Origin: a virus
Strand: one strand, 5' to 3'
Virus record (IMG/VR): IMGVR_UViG_3300002026_000045
Coordinates: 40,159 to 104,158 of that record
DNA length: 64,000 nt
This document shows, piece after piece, positions 46,350 through 63,740 of this stretch. The stretch's first letter is position 1, and each line of letters opens with the position of its first letter. Made by a program: the position numbers and the translations under genes. The notes below the pieces were generated by a model. That model had not been told where the DNA came from. It did no database searches and worked only from the letters and a program-made list of their open reading frames with translations.

Positions 46350-46745
46350 CTACATGCGTTTGTTTGTTGCCCGTTTAGCCATTTGATCAACTGTATCCTC
46401 TGGATTTTGCGCAACATTAGATTCATCACCATGCATTTCATTGTCATCATCTGTATCAAAATCTGATTTAAGGATGACTTCATTTTCATTGAAACTTTTA
46501 ATTAGTTCTTTAACTGCTTCATCAGACTCATGTGCCGCAACTAACGTCTCATAATCAAAGGTAACATCACCAGCGTTTTTAACAAGGCGAATTAAACTGT
46601 CAGTTCTAAGCTTAGGGGTTAGTTCTTTGTCTTCACTTCTGTTTCGCAAAAACATTAGCACAGGAACTAAATTTGCAGAAAGAGATGAGCTAGACAATTG
46701 CTCGCTAGCACTTACATCTTCGTTAATGATTTCACTTATTTTCAT
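46350..46745 (-). CDS. Putative capsid-internal protein
   Basis: MKISEIINE N-terminus; paralog of 46745-47185. Confidence 0.55.
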   Translation of the reverse strand: MKISEIINEDVSASEQLSSSSLSANLVPVLMFLRNRSEDKELTPKLRTDSLIRLVKNAGDVTFDYETLVAAHESDEAVKELIKSFNENEVILKSDFDTDDDNEMHGDESNVAQNPEDTVDQMAKRATNKRM

Positions 46746-47185
46746 TATACTCCGCGGCTGCGGCCCGCTGCTCGTCCTGCCATTGCGCCAACGGTTGCAT
46801 CTTTTTTGTCAGCTGCTTTATTTGGGTCTTCATTTTTAACTGACATATTTTTAAACTTAACTTTTTTCTCGTCAATACTGTCAATCATACTTTGAATTTC
46901 TTGTGACTTTTTGTTAATAGCAATTAAGTCAGCTAAGTTAACAGGCTTTCCAGCAATTTCAATTACTTTAGTTAAGAACGGCAGCAATTCAACTTGAGCG
47001 TGTCCTTGCCCTTTGTACATGTCACAAACTTTTTTAACTGCATTGATCATCTTAGTATCAGCGTTGGAAGATAATTCCATCTCTAATTCTTTATCACCTG
47101 CCCAGTCCGAATCCATTCCATCGTGACCCATCACGCCGTGATCAAAATCACGGAATCCTTCAGTAATAATTTCATTTATTTTCAT
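46745..47185 (-). CDS. Putative capsid-internal protein
   Basis: MKINEIITE N-terminus. Confidence 0.55.
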   Translation of the reverse strand: MKINEIITEGFRDFDHGVMGHDGMDSDWAGDKELEMELSSNADTKMINAVKKVCDMYKGQGHAQVELLPFLTKVIEIAGKPVNLADLIAINKKSQEIQSMIDSIDEKKVKFKNMSVKNEDPNKAADKKDATVGAMAGRAAGRSRGV

Positions 47186-47186
47186 A

Positions 47187-47909
47187 TTAACGACGTTCCC
47201 GTCCCAATTCTTCAGTGCCACCAGCTGCTGCGTCTGCACCGCCAAATTCATCAGGAGGAGCCTCTGCGCCTAAATCATCCATGCCGCCATCATCTAATGC
47301 AGGGTCAGCAGGTACATCACCCATCTCACCACCTGGGACTGGACCACCTGGCATTGGCATTGCTGCATCCTGTTCTCCAGTCAATGCACGGGCGCCACTG
47401 TCTAACGATTCGCGTCCTTGACCAAGCTGTTGAGACAATGTAGTTAACGCCATGCCTACAGAATTTTTAAATGCATCAGCTTGTGCGCTACCAATTTGGT
47501 CACGAATAGAGTCAATTAATGCTGGCAATTGCTCATTTTGCATTTTGCCAACTTTCTCAATCATATCCTGCACTGTGTCAACCATGTCTTTTGCAGCTAA
47601 GATTGCCTCAGCCTGCCCTAACTCACCTTCTTTTAATTTACGACGTGTTTGCTGCTCTTTATAAGCATCAATCCAACGCGACAGCCCTTCATATACAACA
47701 AGCATTTCTAAATACTTAGGATTTTTCTCTGCTGTATGTACTGCACTGCTATTGCGGATACTGGTAACAGTTTCATAAATTTTGCTTCTCATTGCCTGGG
47801 CTTTTGGCAAAGTAATTGAATTATAATCAATATTAACTCCGAATCTAGATTCGGCAATTTTGTTAAGTTTTTGTAAAGATGGTTTGCGGATCATGTTTGA
47901 TAATTTCAT
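47187..47909 (-). CDS. Putative prohead core/scaffold-like protein
   Basis: Helical, LKE site, AAKDMVD..Q, acidic tail ending LGRERR. Confidence 0.5.
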   Translation of the reverse strand: MKLSNMIRKPSLQKLNKIAESRFGVNIDYNSITLPKAQAMRSKIYETVTSIRNSSAVHTAEKNPKYLEMLVVYEGLSRWIDAYKEQQTRRKLKEGELGQAEAILAAKDMVDTVQDMIEKVGKMQNEQLPALIDSIRDQIGSAQADAFKNSVGMALTTLSQQLGQGRESLDSGARALTGEQDAAMPMPGGPVPGGEMGDVPADPALDDGGMDDLGAEAPPDEFGGADAAAGGTEELGRERR

Positions 47910-47919
47910 TGTCTATTCC

Positions 47920-49047
47920 TCAAGAGTTGACTTGTATATATTTAGCCGTTGTAATAATTTTTTCCAAATCTTTTTTAGCTGCGGCTAAATTACGTTTTGA
48001 TTCGTCAAACCGACTTTGTAATAAGTCAATTCTAAAATTGTCACGTTTCTCATGTGCAGCGTCTAATCGAGATCTAAAAATTGTTTTGTCTATGTCAAAT
48101 TTTGACACACGCTGATCAATAGCATACATTGCATCTGCTTCCTTAATCATGCATCGATGCTTTAGTGCACAATAAAAAATTGCACTACGTTTGTCAGCAA
48201 ATTCCTTATCACCAACTCTCCATACAGTTTGCGCTAATTTTTCAACCAAATACGTCGCGACCTTGTAACCGCCATTGCTAAGAGGCACTACAATAGGCAG
48301 TTTGCTTGATTGTTGTAAGTCAGTTAACTCAGCGTGAGCCCAGTTTACTACATACCGCAATCCTTCATCTACGATAGAGTTTAAAATCTTATCGGATTTT
48401 TTTCGCAAAGGTAAGTTTACCTTCACTGTTTTTGGTGCGTTTAAGGACATCTTTAGTTACCAGGTTATTAGCCAGCAGTTGTTCCCTAGGATCTAGGTCT
48501 GCTTTAAGTATAACACCACCCTCGTTAAACTTACTAAGAATTGACGCTTCTTCGTTAGTTAAGGGGATGCTGATATTGTTAAGGAGTTCTACTATTTTCA
48601 TTTAAATATTTATCAAAATTTAAGTTGTTCAAAGTATATGTTTTTATGCGGCCCAGTGACAACAAAAATAGGCTGTGGTATAATTGTTGTCTCGTCTAAC
48701 CCAGTGATGATTGGCACATTAATAAAATCGCTCTCTAATGTACCATGTGAACTATTTTGATTTGCAAAAACTGCTTCCTGCTCTACGCCAAAGGTAAATG
48801 ACCAAACTTTATGCTTGCCTTTATATGCTACACCAAAATTAGTTGTAGCAGTGTCAACTTCCTTCATATCTGGTGTGCTTAGTGTTATTAACTGTGCACG
48901 AAGACCTAATACCTGCACCAAAGTCTCCCAATTCCGTTGTTGATGGCGGGCTTTGTTGTTTGCTATTCCAGATACCTCGTTGGTTTTAGTTATGTCGATC
49001 AACGTGTATCCTATAGAAAGACGCAATGTTGATGAAGAGTCGTTCAT
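47920..49047 (-). other. Three late hypothetical genes (47920-48450, 48389-48601, 48613-49047)
   Basis: ORFs; ATAAATA promoters precede 48601 and 49047. Confidence 0.55.
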
Positions 49048-49080
49048 GCAGTATTTATAAACACGAGTTTTCAGTCATAA

Positions 49081-49106
49081 AAATAGGGACCTAAGTCCCT
49101 ATTTTT
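49081..49106. terminator. Terminator
   Basis: AAATAGGGAC-CTAA-GTCCCTATTT. Confidence 0.75.
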
Positions 49107-49123
49107 AAGTTAAAATTTAACTA

Positions 49124-49486
49124 TTAAGCAAGTTTCAAGCCACCAGCTGAAGTTACAGTTGTACCTGCACCTAAAACCAATACCATTGCTGCTTCTAAGT
49201 CAGCATCAACCCAGCCAGTTGCGTCAACAACAATGCTCAATTGTGCGTCATCAACTTGGTAAGCCAATGTAGATGCTGCGATTTGCAATGTGCGAATTGC
49301 TGTTTCAACTTTACCACCAACGCCCATCTCAGCTACCAACGATGCTGGTGCTACGATTTTGTATGCGGTTGGGTGACGGCCAATACCATTGCTGATAATT
49401 TTACCAACTGAAGATACGCCATGAATGCTAATGTCATAATTAACGATACCATTTGCATCGCCATTTACTCGTGCTACGTTTGCCAT
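49124..49486 (-). CDS. Probable abundant virion protein
   Basis: AGGAG SD, late promoter, own terminator, Ala/Gly/Val-rich. Confidence 0.55.
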   Translation of the reverse strand: MANVARVNGDANGIVNYDISIHGVSSVGKIISNGIGRHPTAYKIVAPASLVAEMGVGGKVETAIRTLQIAASTLAYQVDDAQLSIVVDATGWVDADLEAAMVLVLGAGTTVTSAGGLKLA

Positions 49487-49565
49487 TTTAAATACTCCTA
49501 ATAATGTTACAAGACACTTTGTTCCTGCATATATTTATTTATACAGGTTGCTAAAAATTAGCAAA

Positions 49566-49955
49566 TTACTTGCTGTGATCCTTTTGCGACCAAAACTGTT
49601 TCCCCATGCTTGTCTGTAACTTAGAAGGGGCAATGTCGTTACCTAATTCACGTGCCATTTTATACATTTCAGTTGCAATACCTTTTCTGCGATGAGCTGG
49701 CTGTATAGACAAGTCCAATGCTTCCAACTTGCCATCGTGCACTTCAAAGTTTACCCAGCCACACTCTACACCTTTTTCTGTGCGGGCAGTAATACGAAAC
49801 TGGTCGCTCTTATGTGAGTTTTTAGAGCCATACGACACATACCCAGCAGTGGCAGTTAACGTATAAGCACCATTCAAGATAGGTTTCTTTTGATTAAAGT
49901 CTGTGTAAAAGACTTTATCATTTACTTTTTCATCTACAATTTCAGTTGCTCGCAT
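49566..49955 (-). CDS. GNAT acetyltransferase with capsid-targeting-like N-terminus
   Basis: IQPAHRRKGIATEMY; MRATEIVDE. Confidence 0.8.
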   Translation of the reverse strand: MRATEIVDEKVNDKVFYTDFNQKKPILNGAYTLTATAGYVSYGSKNSHKSDQFRITARTEKGVECGWVNFEVHDGKLEALDLSIQPAHRRKGIATEMYKMARELGNDIAPSKLQTSMGKQFWSQKDHSK

Positions 49956-49956
49956 A

Positions 49957-50367
49957 TTATTTTTTAGAACTTATCAATGATTGCAAGATAAACATTAAAA
50001 ATCTCCCTAGATTTAACGCTAAGTTTTTTAACGCATTATCTCTGTCACGCTGCGGTATACTACGCCATCTTTCAACAAACGCCCTAGCAAAATAAGTTAA
50101 ATATGGTACTATTTTTTCAATGACAGTTCGATTAGCTTCTGCCGCCTCCGCCGCCAATCGTTTAGCACGTTCACCTTCCATAAATTTTGCAACTAGTATT
50201 GCAGCAACATCATCTGGTAAATTTGTTGGTGCTCTTTTTCGTGCCATCTCAATATCCATCGGCCTTGGTTTTGGCACATTTAAAAAATCATCTATTTTTT
50301 TAAATATATAATCGCCTAACCCTTCTGAGATAATCTCAGACTCATTAATAAATTCTATTGATTTCAT
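49957..50367 (-). CDS. Hypothetical protein with capsid-targeting-like N-terminus
   Basis: MKSIEFINE. Confidence 0.6.
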   Translation of the reverse strand: MKSIEFINESEIISEGLGDYIFKKIDDFLNVPKPRPMDIEMARKRAPTNLPDDVAAILVAKFMEGERAKRLAAEAAEANRTVIEKIVPYLTYFARAFVERWRSIPQRDRDNALKNLALNLGRFLMFILQSLISSKK

Positions 50368-50368: not shown

Positions 50369-52036
50369 TTATTTCTCCGCAAACCAAGGATCAACAATCA
50401 CTAACTGACCGTTACTGCGTTGCATTACATTTTCTGTATGTAAATCCCACCACATGTCATTAATTTTACCTGTTGCAAAAAGCATTTGCATCACATTAAA
50501 TAAAATACCATAAGTGGAGTTAAACTTAGGATTAGTTGCCATTTTCTTAATAACAGTCCCAAAGTCATCGAGTTCTATACCAGGAAAATCATTCCAAAAT
50601 GGTGACCACGACATTCTCGAAACTGCATTTTCCCATCTGTCTATAGTATCATCAGCTGCCAAGTCTGATAACGCCCACACTAGTTTCTCTTCAATTGACC
50701 CACTTTTAATATGTGATAGCCGTTCCATTGCAATCTGCCTATATTGTGTGTTCCCAATTGTGAACGGTGCATGGTGTAATCCCTGCACCTCTCTAAATTT
50801 TGGCAAGCATGGGACATTTTGATGAGCCATGCAAAACTCGTAAAATCCTAGGAAAATACGCTCTGCTTCACCTACTGATGGATCGTTGGGCATGAGTATC
50901 TTAATAACTGTTGCTTCGTCCTTGGCCCACACTGTAGCATCAGCACCGCTGCCCAATTTTTTATATCCTAGCGCCTTAAGTTTAGCGTATATTATTTTTG
51001 CATTTGGAGTACCAACCTCTGATTCGTCAACAGGCTCTTCTTTCATTAGGTGCTCTGCATCACCTCTTTTCCGCCATGATCTCCACATGTTTCTACCATC
51101 AGGTAATTGATGCCCACTGGGTTCAATAGTATTGCCTAACATTCTAGCATACGCATACATAGTAGACGCTATACCTTGCCGTTGATAGAGCGGGTCAACA
51201 GAGGTTAATGCACTGATCAATGATTCTCCGTATGCAGAGTAAAACTGAGCTTCACCAACTTTGGTTTCTCCGTCAAAGCATCGCACAATAAGTTGCGGTG
51301 TTTTGCTATAACCAGCAACTTGCATGTGGGCCGTATATCGATAATCCCCAATCTCCTGCTCGTCCTTAAATCGTGGATCAAGAATGTCAGGGTTAATTTC
51401 TTCCTTCATTAACTTAGTAACACGCGGTTTAAACAACTGCACATCGCCTTTGTTTGTTTTTAACACTGGCTGATTGTGCTTATCTTTCTTAAAGCCTTTG
51501 ATCTCTGCGGGAGAGTTTTTAAACTTGCCCTTGAGAATTTTATCCCCAACTTCAAGTGATGGAGGCTGATAGGTTTCACTCTCAGCAACACCTAGTGTTT
51601 TGTTATCCCAATGTTTATCCCATGCTTTACCAACTAAGTCTTCTTCTTTAGCCCAAGTGCCCAATGGTTTCCACCCTGCAGATGGCCCATACCGCTTTTC
51701 ATTTTCGTTTGGTTCTTTGTCGCGATGATATTTGTATGCTTGCACAACTTTAGTGCCACCATACGAGAATGTAAACTCTACCATAATTAGTGGACGAATT
51801 TTTCCTTCAGCAGTTCTATGTATTTCAGGAAAAAACGAGAATACATCAACCTTAGTAAACCCAACACTTGACACTCCATGCTTATAAGCGTGGTGATAGT
51901 TGCGATACTCTTGGAACCACGGATGTTTAATTAAGGAATTCATTTTGCCTTTTCCTAGCAATTTCTGTAACTCTTGGTCAGTACATTGCGTCATTGGCTT
52001 CTCAGCACCTTCAGTAATAAATTGTTTTGATCTCAT
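50369..52036 (-). CDS. Multidomain protein: unknown domains + GNAT + Ser/Thr-kinase-like
   Basis: VDPLYQRQGIASTMY; LGSGADATV, VIKI, MERL, DLHTENVM, IVDP. Confidence 0.8.
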   Translation of the reverse strand: MRSKQFITEGAEKPMTQCTDQELQKLLGKGKMNSLIKHPWFQEYRNYHHAYKHGVSSVGFTKVDVFSFFPEIHRTAEGKIRPLIMVEFTFSYGGTKVVQAYKYHRDKEPNENEKRYGPSAGWKPLGTWAKEEDLVGKAWDKHWDNKTLGVAESETYQPPSLEVGDKILKGKFKNSPAEIKGFKKDKHNQPVLKTNKGDVQLFKPRVTKLMKEEINPDILDPRFKDEQEIGDYRYTAHMQVAGYSKTPQLIVRCFDGETKVGEAQFYSAYGESLISALTSVDPLYQRQGIASTMYAYARMLGNTIEPSGHQLPDGRNMWRSWRKRGDAEHLMKEEPVDESEVGTPNAKIIYAKLKALGYKKLGSGADATVWAKDEATVIKILMPNDPSVGEAERIFLGFYEFCMAHQNVPCLPKFREVQGLHHAPFTIGNTQYRQIAMERLSHIKSGSIEEKLVWALSDLAADDTIDRWENAVSRMSWSPFWNDFPGIELDDFGTVIKKMATNPKFNSTYGILFNVMQMLFATGKINDMWWDLHTENVMQRSNGQLVIVDPWFAEK

Positions 52037-52746
52037 TCAATCCACCTTGCTAGCATTGATGTTCTCCATAATCCACCTATTGGGCTATAACTGTTGTGAT
52101 ACACGTCAATACTGTTTTTAATTGTAGCTGCTAACTCTTGCTTAGTGACCTTCAACGGAAAGATAAACCAATGCTTGTCTTTGAACTTCCCTTGATAATC
52201 GCACCCAATTGACATAAGGTCGTTAACAATCTTGCCCACTTTGTCATTATGCTTCTTTTTAACTGCTGGGCTTTCCTGTGGCTTAGGGTCAGTAAAGTGC
52301 CAATCGCCAATTTCTAATGCTCCTACTACTTCACACCCTGGGATCTTAGATAAACTAACCCAGTTCCGCCTACCGTCTGGAGTCTGTGAGCTACCAGATT
52401 GTAAATTCATGCGTTTAACTGTCAATGCAATACCGTAAAGTGCTTTAGCAAGTCCACGCCCACGGTAATCTTCGTCTACTGTAATAACACCAACTGAATA
52501 AGTGTTAGGTAGAAAAAAGTTACGAACTTTATGCAAAATCAACTTACCAACAACTTTATTCGTGTCAACAATGTAAATTGTAAGATCCCCATGCATATTA
52601 CTGTAAAAACCATATACTAAACCACTCCCACCTGGAAGCGGGTATGTTTTAGTAGGCTTCCCATCATGCCGTAAACTTTGCTTGCCACCCTCATAATCGT
52701 ACGAGTTTAATCGCTCTATTTCTGTAATAAATTGAGTTGAAAGCAT
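52033..52746 (-). CDS. GNAT acetyltransferase with capsid-targeting-like N-terminus
   Basis: VDEDYRGRGLAKALY, QTPDGRRNW; MLSTQFITE. Confidence 0.8.
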   Translation of the reverse strand: MLSTQFITEIERLNSYDYEGGKQSLRHDGKPTKTYPLPGGSGLVYGFYSNMHGDLTIYIVDTNKVVGKLILHKVRNFFLPNTYSVGVITVDEDYRGRGLAKALYGIALTVKRMNLQSGSSQTPDGRRNWVSLSKIPGCEVVGALEIGDWHFTDPKPQESPAVKKKHNDKVGKIVNDLMSIGCDYQGKFKDKHWFIFPLKVTKQELAATIKNSIDVYHNSYSPIGGLWRTSMLARWIE

Positions 52747-52747: not shown

Positions 52748-53194
52748 CTATACCTTTATAATAGAAAAATAATCATCAGATGATCCATGATCAGTAATGA
52801 CTGAATGTGTATACCCTGGAACTTTGATTTTAGACAGCATACGCTTATACAACTTTGTTCTATTACCGTCTGCTTTGTGCGAGCTAAATGTAATTTCGTC
52901 AGGTGAAAATCGAGCAATAAGCTCATTGATTGACGCTATAGCAAATGAAAACACTTGCATTTCTCCACCGCTGCCAGTTTTAGCAAAAGTAGCGCCAGGA
53001 TGATCTTTAGCTTTTTCTGAAAAATCAACTTCCCAAATTGTCCTGCCATTGTTATCACTATAACTAGCACAATTTACAGTTATAAACCTACCATTTATTT
53101 CTGCTCGTGTCGTAAACAAGTCGCTACTAGAGCGAACAATTTGCATTGGTACTTGACTTGAAAACGACTCTAATATAAATTCAAGTGATCTCAT
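52748..53194 (-). CDS. Hypothetical protein with capsid-targeting-like N-terminus
   Basis: MRSLEFILE; TGSGG..VF, R.KLY.RM. Confidence 0.6.
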   Translation of the reverse strand: MRSLEFILESFSSQVPMQIVRSSSDLFTTRAEINGRFITVNCASYSDNNGRTIWEVDFSEKAKDHPGATFAKTGSGGEMQVFSFAIASINELIARFSPDEITFSSHKADGNRTKLYKRMLSKIKVPGYTHSVITDHGSSDDYFSIIKV

Positions 53195-53805
53195 TGCATT
53201 GCCTGCGTTAATATTTCAATGTAATCATAAGTTTTTACTTGAAGTAAGTAGTATTTTTCACATTTAACCATTATTTCATGCTGTGCGTTAATTGCTGCTT
53301 GAAGGTCAGTAACACGAAAATCGCCATCTTCTAAAATTTTAATTATAGCTGGTGCTCGCTCACTTGAGTCAAGAGGAATATCTTTTACTCTTGGTACTGC
53401 GTCAGTTAAATCTTTGATTTTAGGAGACCAACAAAAAGAAAAATTACCAATGGGAACAAACCGATGTAAATCACCATACGATCCTGCAGACTTAAAGTTA
53501 CCAGAACAAAATGCAACTCTATCGCTTCTAAATGCAATACCAAATTTTTGTTTAAACCAAGCATCAACGACTTGCTGATCTGGCTTGTAAGAGTCCAATG
53601 GCTCTCTATATGATCTAGTAGTCCCTATTTTAACACGCGGAGTTACTTCAAATAAAGGAGTACCATAGCCAACACCTCGGTACAAAGAGTCAGAGGACCC
53701 TCGCATCTCTGTCAAAAACGGCTGGCAATGTTGTTTCAACATTACTGCTATCTCGTTGATTTGGTCGTCCAACCTATTTTCAAGTAAAATCTCATTTATT
53801 CTCAT
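53191..53805 (-). CDS. ADP-ribosyltransferase-like protein (paralog 1)
   Basis: LYRG, AFCS, SYG, FCWSP, HEIM; MRINEILLE. Confidence 0.5.
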   Translation of the reverse strand: MRINEILLENRLDDQINEIAVMLKQHCQPFLTEMRGSSDSLYRGVGYGTPLFEVTPRVKIGTTRSYREPLDSYKPDQQVVDAWFKQKFGIAFRSDRVAFCSGNFKSAGSYGDLHRFVPIGNFSFCWSPKIKDLTDAVPRVKDIPLDSSERAPAIIKILEDGDFRVTDLQAAINAQHEIMVKCEKYYLLQVKTYDYIEILTQAMQ

Positions 53806-53824
53806 CGAGTATTTATTACAGATA

Positions 53825-53869: not shown

Positions 53870-54331
53870 TTAGAACGAATATTTTGCACCAATGGACACT
53901 GTGTTTCCACTGTATTCAGTGACACGTTGTTGACCAATCTTATAAGCATAATCTGCCACTAAGCTGACTTGCTTAGTAATAGGCAACGATGCCCCAACGC
54001 CTACTGTCAATGCATAACCGTTAACGCCAACAGTTGGATCAATAAATGAGCCGCCAACTTTAGCTGCAAACGTAGTGCCATACCCGGTAGCGACTGGGTA
54101 AGACCCAGTTAACGAGTATTCGCTAACTGATGTAGCACCAACCATTGCGCGGTCGTATGCAAGTTCAGCGCCAAAAGCACCAAGCTTAGTGCCCAACGTT
54201 ACACCAGTTGCAGTGATGCCAGCATTGTTTGGCTCATGACCGCCGCTGCGGCTAACGCGAAGCCCAATGTCTGTTGCTGATGCTGCCATTGTAGCAGTAG
54301 CCAATAATGCAATAATTGCTAATTTCTTCAT
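53870..54331 (-). CDS. Outer-membrane beta-barrel protein (OmpA/Ail-like)
   Basis: Signal peptide MKKLAIIALL..ASA, amphipathic strands, C-terminal GAKYSF. Confidence 0.85.
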   Translation of the reverse strand: MKKLAIIALLATATMAASATDIGLRVSRSGGHEPNNAGITATGVTLGTKLGAFGAELAYDRAMVGATSVSEYSLTGSYPVATGYGTTFAAKVGGSFIDPTVGVNGYALTVGVGASLPITKQVSLVADYAYKIGQQRVTEYSGNTVSIGAKYSF

Positions 54332-54420
54332 AAGTTTTCCTTTGTTTTAAAATAAGCTCCTTAAAGAAGCCAGAATAATATTTACCTCACCAAACTGGTT
54401 TAGTTATATTATGTTATCGA

Positions 54421-54449
54421 AAAAGATAGGGCCGAAGCCCTATACTTTT
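54421..54449 (-). terminator. tmRNA terminator (UUCG loop)
   Basis: TAGGGC-TTCG-GCCCTA-TCTTTT. Confidence 0.85.
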
Positions 54450-54850
54450 GATTATGTTGGTTTACAAGGCCTTTTCTGCCCCGCTGGTTTCGCTGTTTAG
54501 GCGAAAGCTGCTTCAGTTGCAGCAACTTTGGAACCGCCGAAACGGAAGCCTTTAGCTACTGTCATCTTCACACCAGATGTTACATTTGCGTTTGCATTTG
54601 CTTTGGTTTTGCTTTTTCGACTAGGTTACCCCAATCCTACGGCTTTCACATTGCCGAGCGATAAAATCCGTACTTAGTGTTTGGGCGATTCCGGATGTGC
54701 CCCATCAAAAACACACTGCCAATTAGTCTTTCGACATTATCTGAAACGACCTGGCATATGACCCCCAGGCTCAATGTGTTGTTGGTGGAGCACAGGAGAT
54801 TCGAACTCCTTTGTCAACCACTGTTCTCTATTTTACTTTACGCTGTTACT
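54450..54850 (-). ncRNA. ssrA: Circularly permuted (two-piece) tmRNA
   Basis: T arm GGAGTTCGAATCTCC plus GTGCTCC-ACCA (ends 54783) precedes the 5' strand GGGGCAC (starts 54703); G3.U70 pair; tag ORF 54595-54497; directly after smpB. Outer ends approximate. Confidence 0.88.
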
Positions 54851-54856
54851 AACTAT

Positions 54857-55282
54857 TTATGCTATCTTTTGGCTCTTCACAATTCTTCTGTTATCTAGGT
54901 CAATATCACGATTCTTTGTTGTCTCGCGTTTATCATATTCCTTTTTGCCTCGGGCAACCCCAATTGACAATTTAAACTTGCCGTTCTTTTGGTAAATACG
55001 TAACGGAACTAAGGTTAACCCTTTCTCTTTCACTTTACCAACTAACCGTGCAATTTCTTTCTTATGCAGCAACAACGTTCGTGACCGTTGCATGTCATTA
55101 TCTGACGACCCAATGTTTGCCCCAACTAATATTACTACATCGTCTTTAATTATACAATGCGATCCTGCGATAGAGCAAGAGTTCTGAGCAATCGCTTTAA
55201 CTTCCCAAGCCTCAAGTTTCATGCCGCTCTCATATTCTTCAATAATTTCATAATCAAAAAATGCTTTTTTATTGGATATCAT
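54857..55282 (-). CDS. smpB: SsrA-binding protein SmpB
   Basis: NKKAFFDY, ESGM.L..WEVKAI, R.R.LLLHKKEI, GLTLVPL, ARGKKEYDKRE. Confidence 0.95.
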   Translation of the reverse strand: MISNKKAFFDYEIIEEYESGMKLEAWEVKAIAQNSCSIAGSHCIIKDDVVILVGANIGSSDNDMQRSRTLLLHKKEIARLVGKVKEKGLTLVPLRIYQKNGKFKLSIGVARGKKEYDKRETTKNRDIDLDNRRIVKSQKIA

Positions 55283-55325
55283 GCAGTATGATAACACGGT
55301 CAAAGCCCACCTGCAACTATTTTGA

Positions 55326-55826
55326 TTAAGTAGTGGTCAATTTCTTCCACCCAACATACAGACCAAGAGTGCCAGTTAGTAAAGCAATCAATTTAGTTAA
55401 ATTTTCAAGGAATGAGCTACTATTCACCACAACTGTCTTGCTTTGAATTTCCCCTGCCTCGTTGTACACTAAAGTAACTGTCTCATTTTTAGTTGCTGCA
55501 ACTGCTGACGTCATAACTGCGTCAGTAACTTTTTTGGCCACTTTAGACATAGTATACACAGGCTTAGAAGCTGGGGGTACACTAGTTATTGGTCTTGCCT
55601 TAATATCCCCACCGTAAGTTAAGGTACCAATTGTTGTTTCATCCAATGGCATAAATGCAAAAGCTGGTGGTACTGACGACATTCCCGGAGTACGATCACG
55701 GATAGCTTCTTCTGCTAAGTTAACAGGAACCTCTGTCACTACTGGAGGTTCTGACATAACAGGCATCGTAACTGAGGCACACCCTGCCAATACAGTTACA
55801 TAGCTAAGTAATAAAATTTTAATCAT
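55326..55826 (-). CDS. Lipoprotein with C-terminal TM helix (unimolecular-spanin-like)
   Basis: Lipobox VLAGC; C-terminal LIALLTGTLGLYVGW-KK. Confidence 0.55.
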   Translation of the reverse strand: MIKILLLSYVTVLAGCASVTMPVMSEPPVVTEVPVNLAEEAIRDRTPGMSSVPPAFAFMPLDETTIGTLTYGGDIKARPITSVPPASKPVYTMSKVAKKVTDAVMTSAVAATKNETVTLVYNEAGEIQSKTVVVNSSSFLENLTKLIALLTGTLGLYVGWKKLTTT

Positions 55827-57117
55827 GTTGGTGCTCTAACGTTAATTCATCATTCTCCATGTTACTCTCGTAGTCAGATAGTAAATCAAAATATCCATTG
55901 TTACGAACTGCTTTGTATGCTAAATTCTCAACGCTAAACTCCCCGCCGCTCTCTAACCCAGATTTTCTCATCTTCTTCAAATGATCCCAAATCTTAGCTA
56001 TCTCTGCTGGAGTAGCATCATTATCACGTATAATTGAGTCAATGTGATGCATGATGCTTTCTGCTTTAGCACTTACTGCATTGTCATCAGTTTGCACATT
56101 AGTATGCTGCGGTTCTTTAATCCACTTATCTTGCAGCAATGAGTATATACCAGTGGCAACTAACTTTGAATCCGGATTATTTAAATCTTCAGCATACAAC
56201 TCAACGTCAAACCCTTTGACTGTTATATCGTGTTCTGAATTCCATAATGATTTTTTGGCTCGCAGAAACGGATCAAGTAACGGAGTATCGTCCAACATTG
56301 ACGCATCCACTAATACGTGCAAATCAATGTCTGACTGAGAAGTATAGTTATACGCACAATTACTACCTGTAATAATGTAATCAACTATTTGAATCTCATG
56401 GACGTCCACAAAATCAGAAAATCGATTTGCAATCTTTGATAATGCTTTTTTAACGTCTAACCGTAACTCTGTGCCATCCCACAACGCTGGATTTAACTCA
56501 TTGTGATACGACAATTTCGTATCAATGCTTTCACCAATGGATTCTTTAATTCTAAAATTGGCACGATACCATTGGAATATGTCAGCAGAGGATGAAGAAC
56601 TATTCATTTCTCTACGCAGTAGGTTGTCAATTTGGATTTTAGATGCACGATTTAAATTTTCCCAGTCCCCAACATCTCTACGCAATTGCCTCATTACTCC
56701 ACTGCTATACGCTTTCAAATAATCCTCTAACCTGTAGAAAAATTGGCAATCTTCATTGTGACTGCGTATACTTCCTGAACGCACTGATGACAAATAGCGG
56801 TTAATTTGAAACATTGGTACCGAAATACTTTTGTTTACTTTAATGTTATCTTTAAATGTATTCTGAAAATTCAACACCGCAAGCAAATTTGCTAAATCAG
56901 TGCCAGCATAATGCATATTTTCATATGGACTATACCGCATTGTGTCCTCTGCGTAGTGAGCAGCAAAACTTGGATTTATATATCTGCTAACCTCCAATGC
57001 CATAACCATTACATAAACAATCTGTGCAAGATCGTCAGCAGACTTATTTTTCAGATCAGTTGGCTTCTGAAAAAGTCGTGCTTCGGTTAATTCTTGGAGG
57101 AAAGGAAAGTTTTTCAT
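55819..57117 (-). CDS. Two-domain protein with Pol-beta-like nucleotidyltransferase
   Basis: ITGS..YNY...SDIDLH, VELY, GEFSVENL..K..R. Confidence 0.8.
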   Translation of the reverse strand: MKNFPFLQELTEARLFQKPTDLKNKSADDLAQIVYVMVMALEVSRYINPSFAAHYAEDTMRYSPYENMHYAGTDLANLLAVLNFQNTFKDNIKVNKSISVPMFQINRYLSSVRSGSIRSHNEDCQFFYRLEDYLKAYSSGVMRQLRRDVGDWENLNRASKIQIDNLLRREMNSSSSSADIFQWYRANFRIKESIGESIDTKLSYHNELNPALWDGTELRLDVKKALSKIANRFSDFVDVHEIQIVDYIITGSNCAYNYTSQSDIDLHVLVDASMLDDTPLLDPFLRAKKSLWNSEHDITVKGFDVELYAEDLNNPDSKLVATGIYSLLQDKWIKEPQHTNVQTDDNAVSAKAESIMHHIDSIIRDNDATPAEIAKIWDHLKKMRKSGLESGGEFSVENLAYKAVRNNGYFDLLSDYESNMENDELTLEHQHD

Positions 57118-57734
57118 TTAATGGCCTTGCAATTATCAAAATGCCACCGTGCCATATTTGCAAGATTGCCTGTCTTATTGCAATGAGGGCAAACCGCAGA
57201 TGGGTGCGGATGTGGACGACCCATGAGAATTTCTGAATGTTTTCTCTTCCATTCTTCTGTATGTGGCTTGCGAGGGATGCCTCGCTGTGCTGCTCCAATT
57301 TTTTCTTTATGATCGTCAGAATGGGGGCCACGCTTCAATCCAAGCTGCGAGGCTGAATTTTTTGCTCGTCGCTCTGCTGTATGTGGGCCAAGTACCTTGC
57401 CTTTGTTGCTACCCTTGTTGCGAATTTTCTTTATCCCATCAAATTGATAATTTGCATTTAGCAACAGTGGATTATGCCAATTATCCCTAATCAATGATTG
57501 TTCAAAAACCCATGCGTCATCTCCATTAAAAAATTCTGCTAAAATAGTCCAATCAAAATTTTCAAATTGTTGTCTTACAAGTTTTGACGATGTTTTATAT
57601 TTTGGAAAATCATCCGTGGACGGTCGATTGCGTTTTACATTTGCTTCTCTATAGCCAATATAAAATTCGCCAGTAACCTTGTCTACACATTGGTAGACGT
57701 ATGGCATAGCACGAGTTGATGAAAAGTTTCCCAT
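57114..57734 (-). mobile_element. GIY-YIG homing endonuclease with NUMOD3-type repeats
   Basis: PYVY..TGEFYIGYR, YKTSS, HTAERR/HSDDHK/HTEEWK, CPHC. Confidence 0.82.
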
Positions 57735-57749
57735 CAACTATTTATCACA

Positions 57750-58898
57750 TTAGCCGTTGGCTGCAAAATTGGCTTGGCTAAATCCTAGTCTGTTTACTAG
57801 TTTTATTGGCCCACCATTATCTGTTGAGACATAGCCTTCTCCACCGCGTTGTCCTGCTACGTGAGCAATAACTGGTCCTTCATGTGCGTCTAACTGCTGT
57901 ATAACATCTAATTTAAGGTTGGATACCCCGTCAAACACATCAAACACTGCTTTTAGCCCGACTTGATTTGCCTTAACATAATCGCTTACTTTTTGTATCA
58001 TCACTTTAGACATTTTTGGATTAGATACTAACCATGGCATGAACCGTTCAAACAGCAATGATAAATCTTGTGTCTTAGTTTGTGCGTTTACATACGTGTA
58101 AAGTACATCTGGAAAACCAGTCATTTTAAGTTCAGATAATGTAACTGCATCAAGCAAACTATCTATTGATTTAGCATGTTTTTTAATAAATTGTATCATG
58201 CTTTTTGCTTTAACTTTATCTTGTTGCAATGGTGCTTCGTTCTTAATTTCTGGACCTAGAACACATAAATTGCTGTTGACGTTCAATCCTGCTGTATCAC
58301 GCAATGCTTGCCCTTCTGCTCCATGCTCTGCAAAAAAAGTATGGACTGCTACGCCTGCTTTACCCTGGCCAACTCGATGCCCTAATGTTGAACTTTTTTC
58401 TACTTCATACGTCACTGTATTTGGAGTAAAGACATAGCGTTTACCATTATCTTTAACTTCACCAGGAAACCACATAATGTCTCCGAGAATAAATCCCCTA
58501 TACGCCGACGGAGTTGCCGCTTCAAAGATTGGCCACACGCTAGCTATTTTTGCTAGATATCCTTCATCTCCACCTTTACTTTGTTTCTGCTTAATAAATT
58601 CTTTTGCTGATTTGTAAAGTCCATTGTACCCCTTGGCTCCCCAGCCAGCCTTATCTGTAAAGATAAACTGACCATCCGCGCCACGACCAAAAACAACTGC
58701 TGGCCTACCATCCCATTTAATGGACAACGTATCTCTATTCTTATGTAACCCGACAATATTGTTTACTGCACGAATTGCGCCTGCACTACCCTCAAAGAAG
58801 ACCAAGTCTTCTGCGTGAGCAATTCGTGCGCCCTCAGTGAGTGCAATTGATGTTTGCTTATGCTTGTAAGACTCGCTGATTATTTCATGTATTTTCAT
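57750..58898 (-). CDS. RNA-ligase-like (KxDG) protein
   Basis: H.EDL, SIKWDGRPA, GD, PNT..Y, GEGYV, KLVNR..FS.ANF; MKIHEIISE. Confidence 0.65.
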   Translation of the reverse strand: MKIHEIISESYKHKQTSIALTEGARIAHAEDLVFFEGSAGAIRAVNNIVGLHKNRDTLSIKWDGRPAVVFGRGADGQFIFTDKAGWGAKGYNGLYKSAKEFIKQKQSKGGDEGYLAKIASVWPIFEAATPSAYRGFILGDIMWFPGEVKDNGKRYVFTPNTVTYEVEKSSTLGHRVGQGKAGVAVHTFFAEHGAEGQALRDTAGLNVNSNLCVLGPEIKNEAPLQQDKVKAKSMIQFIKKHAKSIDSLLDAVTLSELKMTGFPDVLYTYVNAQTKTQDLSLLFERFMPWLVSNPKMSKVMIQKVSDYVKANQVGLKAVFDVFDGVSNLKLDVIQQLDAHEGPVIAHVAGQRGGEGYVSTDNGGPIKLVNRLGFSQANFAANG

Positions 58899-58918
58899 TT
58901 ATATATTTAACCAATAAA

Positions 58919-59506
58919 TTACCTACGACCTTTGACAACGTCAAGCACGTCATGGTACATATCTACGTCAAGCATGTAGTATTGTTTACATGCAATCATA
59001 ATTTCACTGTCACTGGCAATAGCCCCAGCTAAATCAGTAGTCTGATATTCCGCTGCTTCCATTTTATCTATTAAAATCTGTTCAATTTCAGGTGTAATAG
59101 GTTTATTATTTACATCGCTAACCTCAATAAACATGTCGCGAACTAAAGGGGACCAGCAAAACGTAAAATCACCAATTGGGAATACTGCATAAAGATTTCC
59201 ATAACTTGCTGCTACATTTGGGTCTCCAACTGCAAAAATGGCATTTGATCTAAACTTAGTGCCGCAGTTTTTCAAAAACCAATTATCTAATATTGCACTA
59301 ATTTTTGGATTAGTAGTTACTGGTTTGCGTCCACCAAAATTTTGATACAATTCAAATGATTTTAGCGTATGCTCCACACCACGATATAATGTTTCGTGCC
59401 ATCCTGCTTGCGCAAAAAATGGTTTGCAATTTTGTTGCAATAGCATTGCTGCATGTTCAGGTGATGCCATCTTTGTGGATTCTGTTAAAAATTCAATACT
59501 TTTCAT
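58919..59506 (-). CDS. ADP-ribosyltransferase-like protein (paralog 2)
   Basis: LYRG, SYG, FCWSP, SEIM; MKSIEFLTE. Confidence 0.5.
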   Translation of the reverse strand: MKSIEFLTESTKMASPEHAAMLLQQNCKPFFAQAGWHETLYRGVEHTLKSFELYQNFGGRKPVTTNPKISAILDNWFLKNCGTKFRSNAIFAVGDPNVAASYGNLYAVFPIGDFTFCWSPLVRDMFIEVSDVNNKPITPEIEQILIDKMEAAEYQTTDLAGAIASDSEIMIACKQYYMLDVDMYHDVLDVVKGRR

Positions 59507-59525
59507 CTATATATTTACCCCATTG

Positions 59526-60144
59526 TTATGTGGCCAATGGTTGTCCACGCCGCTCAAGTATCCGAGGAACAATATTCTTTGTATAAAACGATTCTGTAAA
59601 TGCGTAAAATTCCAATGTTGAATAATCATCTGGATACAGCATAATTTCATGGTTGGACAAAATTGCAGCTTCAACTATACCTGTCCCAGCAACATACTTA
59701 CCTTCTATAAATTTTTTTCTAACTACTTTTTCTAACGCTGGATCTGCATCACCCTGCGAAACATGCAATGCATTACATATCTGCATATACCGGAGAGTAA
59801 CACGCTATGTATCCATTGCACGGCACAATAATATTAGCTCTACCATACTCTGACGCTGTACTCATGCTACCAGTGCACATAACCCCACTTCTAAAAGGAA
59901 ATTTTACAGTCGATGCAAGCAAGTCATTTACTATGCTATGCACTATTTCATCTGTATCTACTGGCTGCCTTCCTTCTATTACATTTCGTGTATTTTTTAA
60001 GAAATTGTCAACGCTTAAATATTTTCTATCCCCACGATACATTGTATTGTGTGGATTTTTAATATGCGAGAAATATTCAGTTGTATCTGCAAAAAATTGA
60101 GCGAAAGCATCAGTGTTCTCTTTAAGAAATTCAAAAGATTTCAT
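59526..60144 (-). pseudogene. Frameshifted ADP-ribosyltransferase-like paralog 3
   Basis: N-half (MYRG...CYSPVYADM*) and C-half (...AAILSNHEIML) lie in different frames, junction near 59775. Confidence 0.65.
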
Positions 60145-60150
60145 TTAAAT

Positions 60151-60750
60151 TTACCAAACAAATTCCATAACTTGATCTGCATACTGCGCGTCTAGTAGAT
60201 AATATTCGTCACAATGAATCATAATTTCATGACTAGATTTTATTGCTCGTTTTAAATCAGTAGTTTGATACATAGCATGATTTATCTCATCTACTATCAT
60301 CTTATCTACTTCATCTTCAGCAGTTTGGTATACATTTATTGCATCCATTATTGAGTCTGATATGTCAAGAGTAAAATCTGCAATCATTGGTGACCAGCAA
60401 AACTTAAAGTTACCAACTGGGAAAGCAGCAAACATATTACCATACGATCTTGCTTGTCTAGCAGAACCAGTCGCAAACATTGCATCTTCTCGATAATTTA
60501 CACCAAAAGTTTCAACAAACCAAGCACCAGCCACATTGTGGACATTAACGTTGGTGTCTCGTGGCTTTCTACCACGTGGGCAAGGGTGTTTACTAAATGG
60601 AGGCAGTGTTGCTCCTATCCCTATTCCACGCCACATTAAATTTTTAGTTAAGCTAAAGTATGGAGAACAATTGGCACGAAGAGTATCGGCCCACATTTTA
60701 AGTTGGGCCGATTGCTCATTACTAGACGAATCTATTTCGTATAGTCTCAT
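60151..60750 (-). CDS. ADP-ribosyltransferase-like protein (paralog 4)
   Basis: MWRG, FATG, SYG, FCWSP, HEIM. Confidence 0.5.
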   Translation of the reverse strand: MRLYEIDSSSNEQSAQLKMWADTLRANCSPYFSLTKNLMWRGIGIGATLPPFSKHPCPRGRKPRDTNVNVHNVAGAWFVETFGVNYREDAMFATGSARQARSYGNMFAAFPVGNFKFCWSPMIADFTLDISDSIMDAINVYQTAEDEVDKMIVDEINHAMYQTTDLKRAIKSSHEIMIHCDEYYLLDAQYADQVMEFVW

Positions 60751-60751
60751 G

Positions 60752-62165
60752 TTACCATGTAGTATTAAGTAACGTTCGTGTCCAAATATCAGTTAACCCG
60801 TCAACATACGTTGCAGTACAGACATACAAGTAAGTTGCATCAACAGCTACCATTCCAACGGTGTCACCTTCAGCGCCAATTGCTGATGCAGGTGCTGCTC
60901 TCAACCCTGTTCCTGGAATTCCTTGCGCTCCTTGAACACCTTGTGGTCCCATTGGGCCAATTTCCCCTTGAATTCCTTGCAATCCTTGTGGACCTTGTGG
61001 ACCTGTGTCACCAGTTAAACCTTGCAAGCCTTGTGGACCAGCAACCGTTGATGCTTCTCCCTGTGGTCCTTGTGGGCCTGCTGGGCCAGTGTCACCTTGA
61101 ATACCTTGTGGACCAGCAACCGTTGATGCTTCGCCTTGAGGTCCTTGTGGTCCTGCTGGGCCAATGTCACCTTGAATACCCTGAATCCCTTGTGGTCCAG
61201 CGTCTCCTTGGATCCCCTGTGGTCCCATTGGACCTACTTCACCTTGTGGACCAGCAACTGTTGATGCTTCTCCCTGAGGTCCTTGTGGTCCCATTGGACC
61301 TACTTCACCTTGTGGACCAGCAACTGTTGATGCTTCTCCCTGAGGTCCTGCTGGGCCAGTAAGTCCTTGTGGACCCATTGGACCTACTTCACCTTGAATA
61401 CCTTGAAGCCCCTGTGGACCTGCTGGTCCTTGAAGCCCCTGTGGACCTGCAACTGTTGAATCTGCGCCGGCAGGTCCTGCTGCTCCCTGTGGTCCCGCTG
61501 GACCCATTTCACCTTGGGCTCCACGCAATGCAGTTAACGCACCAGGAATCCATTCTGTCCATACACCTGGGGAAACATATAACCAAATTGTTTGAGTATC
61601 GTTAACAAAGTATGCATCGCCAAGTGTAAATCCACCGCCTGCTGGTAATCCACTAAGTGAAGATATCGTAGCTAGTAAATTAATTCCCTTAACTCCCTGA
61701 GGGCCCATTGGACCTTCTGGACCTTGTGGACCAGCTGGGCCCATTGGACCTTCTGGACCACCAGCTGGACCTTGATCTCCCACTAATCCTTGTGGACCTT
61801 GATCTCCCACTAATCCCTTATCGCCTGGTTCGCCCTTGTCACCCGTTGGTCCCTTGTCACCAACTGGCCCTTGCACCCCAGTTGGACCTTGTACACCTGC
61901 TGGACCTTGAACTCCAGCAATACCTTGCGGCCCTTGCAACCCTACGTCACCAGTAGCACCTTTGTCACCAGTAGCACCTTTGTCACCAGTAGCACCTTTG
62001 TCACCAGTAGCACCTTTGTCACCAAAATCTAATCACTGGACGATTAAGTACCGGTAATGTAGTTGTATTTGAAGGCCCAACGTCTACTCCGTCAAATTGA
62101 TTTGATTGAGCATCTGTCAAGACATCGAATCCGTTAAACCCAGTTGGTTGAAATGCATTTGCCAT
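60752..62165 (-). CDS. Collagen-like fibre protein, split by a frameshift near 62025
   Basis: Long Gly-X-Y repeats and C-terminal G..GD.G..A.D..YLYVC...W.R domain; the SD-led 48 aa N-terminal ORF (62165-62019) is out of frame with the collagen frame (62032-60752). Confidence 0.75.
61947..62024. repeat. Perfect 18-bp tandem repeat x4.3 (encodes GDKGAT)
   Basis: tcaccagtagcacctttg repeated. Confidence 0.9.
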
Positions 62166-62183
62166 ATTATTTCCTTTATATTG

Positions 62184-63740
62184 TTATGTTATTAAATTAC
62201 TCATGGTCCTAAACCATATTGCCGACCCAGGAGTAGCTGATTCAGGTAAATTAATTAGCCCTTTTTTAGCATCTTCCCTTGCTTGTGCCAACTTAGCTTC
62301 TTTATTTGGATCGTTAGCTAAAGCTCGCATAATTGTTTTAACTGATGCCAAATCTGCAGATGTTGCTTGTGGCCCAATTAAAATTTTTGCTACATCATCT
62401 TTATTATCAGCAACTAGTTTGTTTGTCGTCCTGTCAACTAATTTACCTTCAAATGGGCTAAATTTTAACCCAAGTGCTTTTGCCAATGACGAGTACATTA
62501 TAAATAACTGCCCTCCTTTAAATTCTGGATCAGCATACTGTCCAGGAAGGTTGTTTTTAAAATCTCCATGTTGATGAAAAGGTGCAACTCGCTGTGCGTC
62601 AGGAATTACCATAACGTCAACTTGAACAAAAGTTCCGCCAGGCACTGGCATCCTTACATGCACATTTCTACCAGATAACGCGCATTGATACCCTTTTGCT
62701 TCAATATATTTTTTTAATTCTACTTTGGCAACTTTGTCATCTTTTGCTTTAAAATACTCTGCAATTAATGCAGCATCAACAAACACATCCATATCACCTG
62801 ACTGTACTTTAAACCCAGCACTGCCAATATGGGGAATAATTTTAATTCCAGGTGGCATTAATTTTTGGATTGTTGTTATTATTCCCGGCACATATTCTTT
62901 TTTAATTGCCGTTACGTCATCAAAAACGTTCCCGCCCTCTGCAAGAATAGATTCTATTAGTTTGTGAGTTTGCGCATTAATAGATTCTGTCGTTTTCCCA
63001 GTTGCTGCTCGTTGCGCTCTAGCGGCGGCAATAAGATCCAATGTCTTTTTGTCACCAGATTTTGTAGCTTGATTGAACGCTGGAGTAAGATCATCTTGCA
63101 CTGTGCTAGTTGATGTGCCTGAGTCAGGGGAAGCAGGAGTTGTGTTACTAATTGACCATCCATTTTGCAACCATGATTGAACTGTAGACGAATGCACATA
63201 GCGGTATTGAGTTTCTAACCCATTGCGTTTCAATTCAATTGTTTCAAACCCTGCCGGGGGGCCAGTTAAATTAGAATGCTTTGGCACTATAACGTCGTCT
63301 GGTGAAGGTGAAGGGCCAGGTGAAGGGCCAGGTGAAGGTGAAGGGCCAGGTGAAGGTGAAGGTGTTGACCCACCATTGGTTACAGTGATCCCTAACGATT
63401 TAAGTCGGTCAGACAAAGTAAACGTCAAATCACGATGCTTTTGCATAGTAGAACTGCGTAACAACTTACTTACTGCATCATAAATATCAGATAATTCAAT
63501 TGAATTTCCATTTCGTGTAGCTTTAGATACCAAAACTTGTTGCAATCTCTTTACCTTAGGAGAATCTTCAAACGGAGTCGGAAACTTATATGGAGAAAAT
63601 GCGTTTCCTCCTGTGCGAGGAGCTAAGTTATCTTGAGAATTGTTTGCTGAAGCTTTTAATTGGTTAGCAAAATTTGTCGCGCCTAGGCCAGCCGCAAGGC
63701 TATCCCAAAATCCCTCAGTAACAACTTCGTTAATTTTCAT
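62184..63740 (-). CDS. Multidomain protein with C-terminal nucleotidyltransferase
   Basis: MKINEVVTE; PSPSPG linker; EGGNVF, IGSAG...SGDMDV, VQVDVM, KG. Confidence 0.75.
   Translation of the reverse strand: MKINEVVTEGFWDSLAAGLGATNFANQLKASANNSQDNLAPRTGGNAFSPYKFPTPFEDSPKVKRLQQVLVSKATRNGNSIELSDIYDAVSKLLRSSTMQKHRDLTFTLSDRLKSLGITVTNGGSTPSPSPGPSPSPGPSPGPSPSPDDVIVPKHSNLTGPPAGFETIELKRNGLETQYRYVHSSTVQSWLQNGWSISNTTPASPDSGTSTSTVQDDLTPAFNQATKSGDKKTLDLIAAARAQRAATGKTTESINAQTHKLIESILAEGGNVFDDVTAIKKEYVPGIITTIQKLMPPGIKIIPHIGSAGFKVQSGDMDVFVDAALIAEYFKAKDDKVAKVELKKYIEAKGYQCALSGRNVHVRMPVPGGTFVQVDVMVIPDAQRVAPFHQHGDFKNNLPGQYADPEFKGGQLFIMYSSLAKALGLKFSPFEGKLVDRTTNKLVADNKDDVAKILIGPQATSADLASVKTIMRALANDPNKEAKLAQAREDAKKGLINLPESATPGSAIWFRTMSNLIT
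63301..63363. repeat. 6/12-bp tandem repeats encoding a Pro-Ser/Gly linker
   Basis: ggtgaa/gggcca units. Confidence 0.85.

Follow-up and report, generated by a model that had tools for sequence, protein, structure and literature searches.

Why do a series of phage proteins with different folds begin with nearly the same nine residues? The question is raised by a 64,000-nt stretch of DNA, hereafter the window, which comprises bases 40159-104158 of a 104,158-bp linear IMG/VR virus contig (IMGVR_UViG_3300002026_000045) that CheckV estimates to be ~55% complete, and on which almost all genes lie on the minus strand. An initial annotation of the window had listed 15 such N-termini, attached to apparently unrelated cargo, and had likened them to the signal that directs internal proteins into the head of phage T4. 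By analogy with T4, we find it probable that the shared N-terminus, referred to herein as the tag, is a T4-type capsid-targeting sequence (CTS), that is, a propeptide that would be removed by a prohead protease, and that the locus encodes an expanded T4-type load-and-clip system. The mechanism is already known from T4, and the diversity of CTS-tagged proteins has been anticipated in the literature; what differs is the PA5oct-like jumbo-phage lineage, a tag sequence that departs slightly from that of T4, how many genes are tagged, and a cargo of mostly predicted modifying enzymes. No paper describing such arrays of tagged enzymes was found in the literature searched.

Occurrence of the tag in two gene blocks

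All 15 N-termini were found at the starts of minus-strand open reading frames (ORFs) between positions 46745 and 63740 (Table 1; the higher coordinate of each tagged ORF is its start). The tag follows the nine-residue consensus M-[KR]-x-x-E-[FI]-[ILV]-x-E at the very N-terminus of the ORF. The count of 15 was somewhat overstated, as 12 of these tags are robust and three are degenerate (MKIVELLNN, MKNFPFLQELTE and MRLYEIDSS). Another eight tagged ORFs, one of them with a further degenerate tag (MRAEQFVE..LLSE), are found in a second block at genome positions 31595-38909. This block, immediately downstream of a ClpP gene, precedes the window by 1.2-8.5 kb. Across both blocks 19/23 tags fit the consensus, with a peptide that ends in the (L/I)-x-E form and stands directly after the initiator Met. 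Within the window the tagged genes lie in closely packed runs with frequent translational coupling (e.g. 53805->49566 and 47185->46350), which are broken by untagged genes encoding transfer-messenger RNA (tmRNA) and SmpB, an outer-membrane-protein (OMP)-like and a lipoprotein-like protein, a homing endonuclease and a collagen-repeat fibre.

The specificity of the tag was evaluated with a position-specific scoring matrix (PSSM) of its nine residues. When 914 Met positions in the contig were scored, 21 matches reached ≥9 bits, and every one was the start of a tagged ORF; in leave-one-out scoring 19/23 tags kept ≥7.7 bits. A six-frame regular-expression scan of the whole contig likewise confined the motif to the two blocks, bar two trivial exceptions. 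With the PSSM, the motif scan that the initial annotation had proposed returned matches only at the tagged ORF starts of the two clusters. Controls gave ~0-1 PSSM matches in ~15,000 positions altogether: none of 3444 Met positions in phage CBB, and one of 9375 in 57 loci flanking rIIA, that one being a real tag in a relative (G2, below). Two complete phage genomes that lack a Peptidase S77 prohead protease had no PSSM match at any ORF start. Single matches to the pattern MKxxEFITE in these two genomes were discarded as chance occurrences, being internal and in frame or lying in no ORF of ≥45 aa.

Correspondence with the T4 capsid-targeting sequence

The tag aligns with the N-termini of the T4 internal proteins IPII and IPIII (MKTYQEFIAE), of gp24 (MAKINELLRE) and of the scaffold gp22 (MLKEQLIAE), as given in the T4 record. 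In T4 the first ten residues of IPIII are enough for encapsidation, and residues 4 and 7 of the CTS matter for targeting while residues 8 and 10 matter for processing (PMC9026906). With a shift of one residue, the invariant F/I6, I/L7 and E9 of the tag align with F7, I8 and E10 of T4. The T4 CTS (IPI, IPII and IPIII, with related propeptides in Alt, gp24 and gp22; cut by gp21) and the tag are both short peptides that start immediately behind Met and contain two adjacent hydrophobic residues and then x-Glu (..EFIAE in T4, ..EFITE here), both occur on otherwise unrelated proteins, and both fit the (L/I)-x-E cleavage rule (PMC9026906, PMC3012670, PMC5694885). The injected T4 ADP-ribosyltransferase (ART) Alt, which may be compared with the ART-like cargo described below, is cleaved at ITE-6 (PMC5694885), and the T-even internal proteins are diverse defence proteins with only the CTS in common (PMC3012670). 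The two systems differ in that the tag is one residue shorter than the T4 CTS, that there are ~23 tagged genes in 104 kb, known from sequence alone, versus a handful in T4, and that the cargo is mostly enzyme-sized (130-718 aa, with predicted pI values of 4.5-9.6), whereas that of T4 consists of small basic internal proteins.

If the tag acts as it does in T4, the tagged genes would be expressed late, with the head genes, and the tag would bind the scaffolding core during prohead assembly. A gp21-type (Peptidase S77) prohead protease would then cut after Glu9, at the (I/L/V)-x-E site. The mature enzymes would remain with the DNA inside the head and, at the next infection, pass into the host together with the genome, early enough to act before any phage gene is expressed. 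We infer each of these events in this way, from binding to the core through cleavage and packaging to injection, as well as the functions of the cargo; virus particles probably contain the tagged enzymes and deliver them along with the DNA. We go a further step, by analogy with T4 IPI* and Alt, in inferring that the injected cargo would help to take over the host or to counter its defences.

The sequences preceding the tagged genes are compatible with late expression. ATAAATA, the core of the T4 late-promoter box, is strand-biased over the whole contig (29 sense versus 8 antisense) and occurs upstream of fibre and structural genes, of both tag clusters and of the head genes of relatives. In six tagged genes the ATG is preceded by a TAAATA or TAAATT box at a distance of only 3-5 nt (Table 1), a spacing that would give leaderless or nearly leaderless late mRNAs. 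Several untagged genes show an equal distance between box and ATG. Sites of the sigma-70 promoter type were at chance level (49, versus 49.1 in shuffled sequence).

The ~55% complete fragment contained no capsid, portal, scaffold or prohead-protease gene, and the protease of this phage therefore has to be deduced from related genomes. A megablast search with the 18-kb region and a tblastn search with the 518-aa protein gave no match among 50,697 phage records, and a locus search in viral contigs with the ART-like protein found no relative. Relatives were reached via rIIA, which led to 57 IMG/VR loci at 43-89% identity. Peptidase_S77 is encoded in three of five long contigs among these (G1, G2 and G3, with G2 a complete genome of 362,810 bp), as well as in a complete tag-bearing genome (G6) and in the cultured jumbo phage PA5oct. 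Tagged ORFs were detected in G1 (5), G2 (5) and G6 (8) with a PSSM that was not trained on these genomes, and PA5oct has two. The head module of G2 runs in the order portal, two small proteins, a 343-aa protein, protease, a 372-aa protein and a major capsid protein that is 77% identical to that of PA5oct. Head-core proteins in these modules themselves begin with tag-like N-termini, namely MKISEIMEG and MAKKIDEILSE in G2, MKINDL.. in G6 and MKINDIITEG in PA5oct gp333. The last of these lies between portal and protease, the position that genes 67 and 68 occupy in T4, and its record marks detection in virions by electrospray ionization tandem mass spectrometry (ESI-MS/MS). The major capsid proteins of the relatives have A-L-x-E-G in common ~18 residues from their starts.

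Taken together, the capsid-targeting role proposed in the initial annotation is supported by the match to T4 at the targeting and processing positions, by the spread of the tag over different folds, by Nudix and DUF6267 homologues without a tag, by the S77 proteases of tag-bearing relatives and the lack of true tags in the two complete S77-less genomes, and by the similar N-termini of head-core proteins. Several observations weigh against it. The T4 targeting residue Tyr4 has no conserved counterpart in the tag, three of the window's 15 tags are degenerate, and the fragment is devoid of detectable head genes, as noted above. Codons 2 and 3 of the tagged genes are unusually A-rich (AAA or AGA at codon 2; ATA, TCA or GCA at codon 3), and part of the tag's conservation may therefore serve translation initiation. 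The second tagged ORF of PA5oct, gp213, has no mass-spectrometry note in its record, and the relatives share only 17-32 of 142 ORFs with the contig, at 36-40% identity. Finally, phage CBB has an S77 protease and no tag of this type, which indicates that the protease does not imply the tag and that the tag is specific to some lineages.

Could the peptide have been conserved for reasons unrelated to the capsid? It might be a docking or regulatory peptide, either a handle for a phage chaperone or a common host target, or a degron for host ClpX or ClpA acting with a phage ClpP. A bona fide ClpP (PF00574, 251 bits) is encoded immediately upstream of the neighbouring tag cluster, its PA5oct orthologue (48% identity) adjoins the tagged gp213, and tmRNA and SmpB are encoded within the tag cluster of the window. 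We nevertheless regard this explanation as unlikely, since the tag obeys the T4 gp21 cleavage rule in having an invariant Glu with I, L or V two positions before it, the same peptide starts head-core proteins between portal and protease in relatives, and tags co-occur with S77 proteases; to our knowledge, the tag also resembles no known N-terminal recognition signal of ClpX or ClpA. That ClpP rather than the S77 protease processes the tags was considered as well and ranked low.

Alternatively, conservation could lie at the level of nucleic acid, as an aid to translation of near-leaderless late mRNAs or as a short patch of homology through which gene cassettes recombine, with a peptide that has no function. 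The boxes so close to six start codons and the A-richness of codons 2 and 3 would fit such a role. However, codon choice at E5, F6, I7 and E9 varies synonymously and at E5, F6 and E9 mirrors genome-wide usage (E9 is GAA 13 : GAG 6, versus 71:29 overall), and codons for I, L and V all occur at position 7, from which it follows that the peptide itself is conserved; codon usage thus indicates that selection acts on the peptide. Most tagged genes are, moreover, translationally coupled in operons without a TAAATA-type motif, and thousands of diverged homologues retain the peptide, so that a nucleic-acid signal is very unlikely to account for the tag. The most improbable of the explanations is plain paralogy, in which all tagged proteins would belong to one large, rapidly diverging family and would owe their common N-terminus to descent rather than to a portable signal. 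Five tagged proteins are indeed clear paralogues, GNAT and kinase-like domains recur, and the ART-like family keeps its tag across metagenomes, but the tagged proteins as a whole comprise different folds, and Nudix and DUF6267 homologues elsewhere are untagged. Each of these explanations is weaker than that of a capsid-targeting sequence.

The proposed capsid-targeting system can be set beside others in which proteins are packed into phage heads. The polymorphic internal-protein loci of T-even phages likewise combine a constant tag with variable cargo and have been interpreted as a toolkit for an arms race with host defences (PMC3012670, PMC9026906); they differ in encoding a few small inhibitor-type proteins, whereas long arrays of predicted modifying enzymes are found here, in a PA5oct-like jumbo-phage lineage. 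The phiKZ-like giants (SPN3US, phiKZ and 201phi2-1) also carry many head-packed, ejected proteins that are cut after Glu by a homologous protease, but their motif is (S/A/G)-x-E, their propeptides are long rather than a common nine-residue tag, and the processing of their ejection proteins is variable (PMC5694885, PMC10052503). The Dar antirestriction proteins of phage P1 are comparable in that they are reported to be defence-countering, capsid-loaded and injected (PMC9024508, PMC12810830), and differ in head type, loading hierarchy and signals. In the cultured Agrobacterium jumbo phage Atu_ph07, which has an S77 protease, ten ORFs start with M-[KR]-W-x-Q-L-[TNI]-E, a version of the tag that ends in L-x-E; nine are tandem paralogues (43293-49507) and one is a distant ORF (304780). 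Some members of this array are homologous to the ART-like family of the window. Atu_ph07 differs in having its own tag sequence, borne in the array by one paralogous family, and no description of this array was found in the literature searched.

The tag is not restricted to these genomes. An exact scan of IMG/VR for MKxxEFITE found at least 119 contigs, and among the matches listed 188 of 200 PSSM matches lay at ORF starts and 38 loci had 2-7 tagged ORFs. The ART-like family has 7044 representative clusters (50% identity) at E ≤ 0.001; among the best 143 of these, 58 reach ≥9 bits with the tag PSSM, many others carry offset variants, and a few are giant multi-copy proteins. The 23 tagged genes, the MKxxEFITE contigs with their frequent arrays and the ~7000 ART-like clusters suggest that pre-packaged enzyme arsenals are common in large T4-type phages. 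We tentatively propose, at what we judge to be slightly under an even chance, that many T4-type and jumbo phages use the tag as a portable address label, which would mark hundreds of capsid-preloaded families directly from sequence, and that the more than 20 enzymes encoded here (ART-like proteins, acetyltransferases, kinases, nucleotidyltransferases and Nudix) form a kit for host takeover and counter-defence far beyond the few internal proteins of T4. The scale, 23 tagged genes in half a genome, is notable. If the tag works as in T4, it would permit the proteins injected ahead of phage gene expression to be listed from sequence alone, a class that is hard to find and that includes the anti-restriction protein IPI* and the host-modifying Alt of T4. 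It could also be put to use outside T4, as a natural signal for packaging proteins into other phages.

Cargo of the tagged genes

The tagged proteins had been described as carrying unrelated cargo, comprising GNAT, kinase, ART-like, nucleotidyltransferase and ligase-like proteins. The cargo does include several different folds and families, as the tag was found on GNAT, Nudix, amidoligase, DUF6267, ART-like, nucleotidyltransferase-like and kinase-like proteins, with Nudix and amidoligase among the cargo of the neighbouring cluster. It is not unrelated throughout, however: a set of five tagged proteins is paralogous, and GNAT and kinase-like domains are each found more than once. When the tags were removed, BLAST joined only three groups, namely a five-member family (the ORFs starting at 53805, 59506, 60144 and 60750, and one in the neighbouring cluster), a kinase-like pair and a GNAT block. 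The individual calls hold up as leads, with GNAT recognized by Pfam, the kinase-like domain by PHROG, the ART-like family by fold, and the nucleotidyltransferase and KxDG proteins by motif. Searches of Pfam, PHROGs and NCBIfam left most cargo proteins without a family name, and sequence searches of the PDB with four cargo proteins and an ART-family profile gave nothing useful.

Several observations point to a tag that is modular with respect to its cargo. The Nudix protein of this phage has a tagged extension of ~22 residues that is absent from its homologues in G2, G6, PA5oct and CBB. The DUF6267 domain begins at residue 26 of the 382-aa protein, and its homologue in cyanophage P-HM1 is untagged. 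The kinase-like domain follows the tag directly in one protein and comes after other domains in another. A 649-aa metagenomic protein has an MK.LPF.QELTEARLF leader like that of the 432-aa protein of the window, followed instead by an ART-like domain; the leader of the 432-aa protein was found on the ART-like protein P0109.

The five-member family had no Pfam or PDB sequence match. Its 195-aa member was modelled with AlphaFold. The model was confident (mean predicted local distance difference test score, pLDDT, of 91.8), with residues 1-7 below 50, so that the tag is predicted to be unstructured in this one cargo protein. A fold search with the model (VIA-align, representatives) returned mostly ART-fold proteins, including Arr, diphtheria toxin, exotoxin A, cholix, DarT and PARPs, at Z-scores of only 3.0-4.7; the highest score, Z 6.8, was that of 2aua, an uncharacterised protein. 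A Foldseek search of the PDB had no match at E ≤ 0.001. Residues R42, R86, S119 and E168 are invariant in the family alignment. Since the ART matches are low and fall below that of 2aua, "ART-like" is used as a lead for the five-member family and does not denote membership of the superfamily. In giant metagenomic proteins the ART-like domain occurs in 2-5 copies (P0019, of 2645 aa, P0048, P0056 and P0059), an arrangement that recalls the "polyvalent proteins" of phages and conjugative elements.

Among the remaining tagged proteins (Table 1), the 555-aa protein matches phrog_15752 (T7 0.7-type protein kinase) over residues 343-550 (E 7e-7), contains D-L-H-x-x-N and V-D-P-W motifs, and is paralogous to a tagged 222-aa protein of the neighbouring cluster; it also has a 40-residue block in common with the 129-aa GNAT-like protein. 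A GS..DxD motif is present in both the 432-aa and the 518-aa proteins. The Atlas neighbours of the former in part carry NTP_transf_2, and the Atlas structural neighbours of the latter include NTP_transf_2 and DUF6267 clusters. The homologue of the 148-aa protein in PA5oct begins with MHLFELFD. The 70-aa MKIVELLNN protein was considered as a homologue of the PA5oct head-module protein gp333, and comparison showed that the two are not homologous. The split ART-like paralogue, identified by comparison with the intact 216-aa metagenomic relative P0010, has a short out-of-frame deletion and is either a pseudogene or the result of an assembly error.

Table 1. Tagged ORFs, start-proximal boxes and neighbouring features (window positions unless marked as genome positions)
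Feature	Position	Strand	Evidence and remarks
Tagged ORF, 131 aa, MKISEIINE; acidic cargo	46350..46745	-	leave-one-out 15.9 bits; no Pfam, PHROG or NCBIfam match
Tagged ORF, 146 aa, MKINEIITE	46745..47185	-	22.0 bits; no family match; start 1 nt past the stop of the upstream gene
ORF with degenerate tag, 70 aa, MKIVELLNN	48389..48601	-	leave-one-out 0.8 bits; phrog_16215 "virion structural protein", E 4.5e-5
Tagged ORF, 129 aa, MRATEIVDE; GNAT-like	49566..49955	-	Pfam GNAT models at E 2e-4 to 8e-4, under their cut-offs
Tagged ORF, 136 aa, MKSIEFINE	49957..50367	-	20.5 bits; no family match
Tagged ORF, 555 aa, MRSKQFITE	50369..52036	-	GNAT-like middle, kinase-like C-terminus
Tagged ORF, 237 aa, MLSTQFITE; GNAT acetyltransferase	52033..52746	-	PF00583, 25.7 bits, over the 20.7 cut-off
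Tagged ORF, 148 aa, MRSLEFILE; phage family	52748..53194	-	phrog_6387, phrog_16075
Tagged ORF, 204 aa, MRINEILLE; ART-like family	53191..53805	-	paralogy by BLAST
ORF with longer tag variant, 432 aa, MKNFPFLQELTE	55819..57117	-	Pol-beta-type nucleotidyltransferase-like C-terminal part; phrog_36119, E 1.5e-57
Tagged ORF, 382 aa, MKIHEIISE; DUF6267 and KWDG motif (ligase or nucleotidyltransferase-like)	57750..58898	-	PF19782, E 2.5e-36
Tagged ORF, 195 aa, MKSIEFLTE; ART-like member chosen for modelling	58919..59506	-	AF2 model; fold search
ART-like paralogue, MKSFEFLKE, split into 123-aa and 86-aa ORFs	59526..60144	-	comparison with P0010
ART-like paralogue, 199 aa, decayed tag MRLYEIDSS	60151..60750	-	leave-one-out -4.3 bits
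Tagged ORF, 518 aa, MKINEVVTE	62184..63740	-	12.7 bits; P/S/G-rich linker and nucleotidyltransferase-like C-terminal domain
TAAATA/TAAATT boxes, T4-late-promoter-like	48607-48612, 53810-53815, 58904-58909, 59512-59517, 60148-60153, 63746-63751	-	48607-48612: ATAAATA 5 nt before ATG of MKIVELLNN ORF; 53810-53815: AATAAATA 4 nt before ATG of MRINEILLE gene, behind a hairpin; 58904-58909: TAAATA, 382-aa gene; 59512-59517: TAAATA, 195-aa MKSIEFLTE gene
Structural protein, 609 aa	42982-44811	-	Mtd-type N-terminal domain and pectate-lyase-like beta-helix
OMP-beta-barrel-like protein with signal peptide, and lipoprotein-like protein	53870-54331, 55326-55826	-	both untagged
tmRNA, permuted, two-piece	54406-54876	-	ARAGORN
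SmpB	54857-55303	-	PF01668, 147 bits
Homing-endonuclease-like gene	57114-57737	-	phrog_314, NUMOD3 motif
Collagen-triple-helix repeat protein, 395 aa	60752-61939	-	tail-fibre-like PHROGs; higher G+C patch (0.46)
ClpP, cellular type	genome 38947-39531	-	627 bases before window start

Neighbouring genes

Beyond the tagged genes, the contig encodes rIIA, rIIB, a T4-type RNA ligase 1, a PAAR protein, ribonucleotide reductase and ClpP, as well as tail-fibre-like and collagen-like proteins. The PA5oct orthologue of ClpP, gp212, is annotated as a virion (ESI-MS/MS) protein. The tmRNA lies amid the tag array of the window with SmpB immediately upstream of it, the two being flanked by the OMP-like and lipoprotein-like genes, and together with the phage ClpP they look like a phage-borne set for trans-translation and degradation. 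The homing-endonuclease-like gene has a tagged gene on either side, with a 4-nt overlap with the start of the 432-aa gene, and the gene for the collagen-repeat protein lies within the tag array. Just upstream of the array, and preceded by a TAAATA box, is the gene for the 609-aa structural protein, which is likely a receptor-binding or depolymerase fibre.

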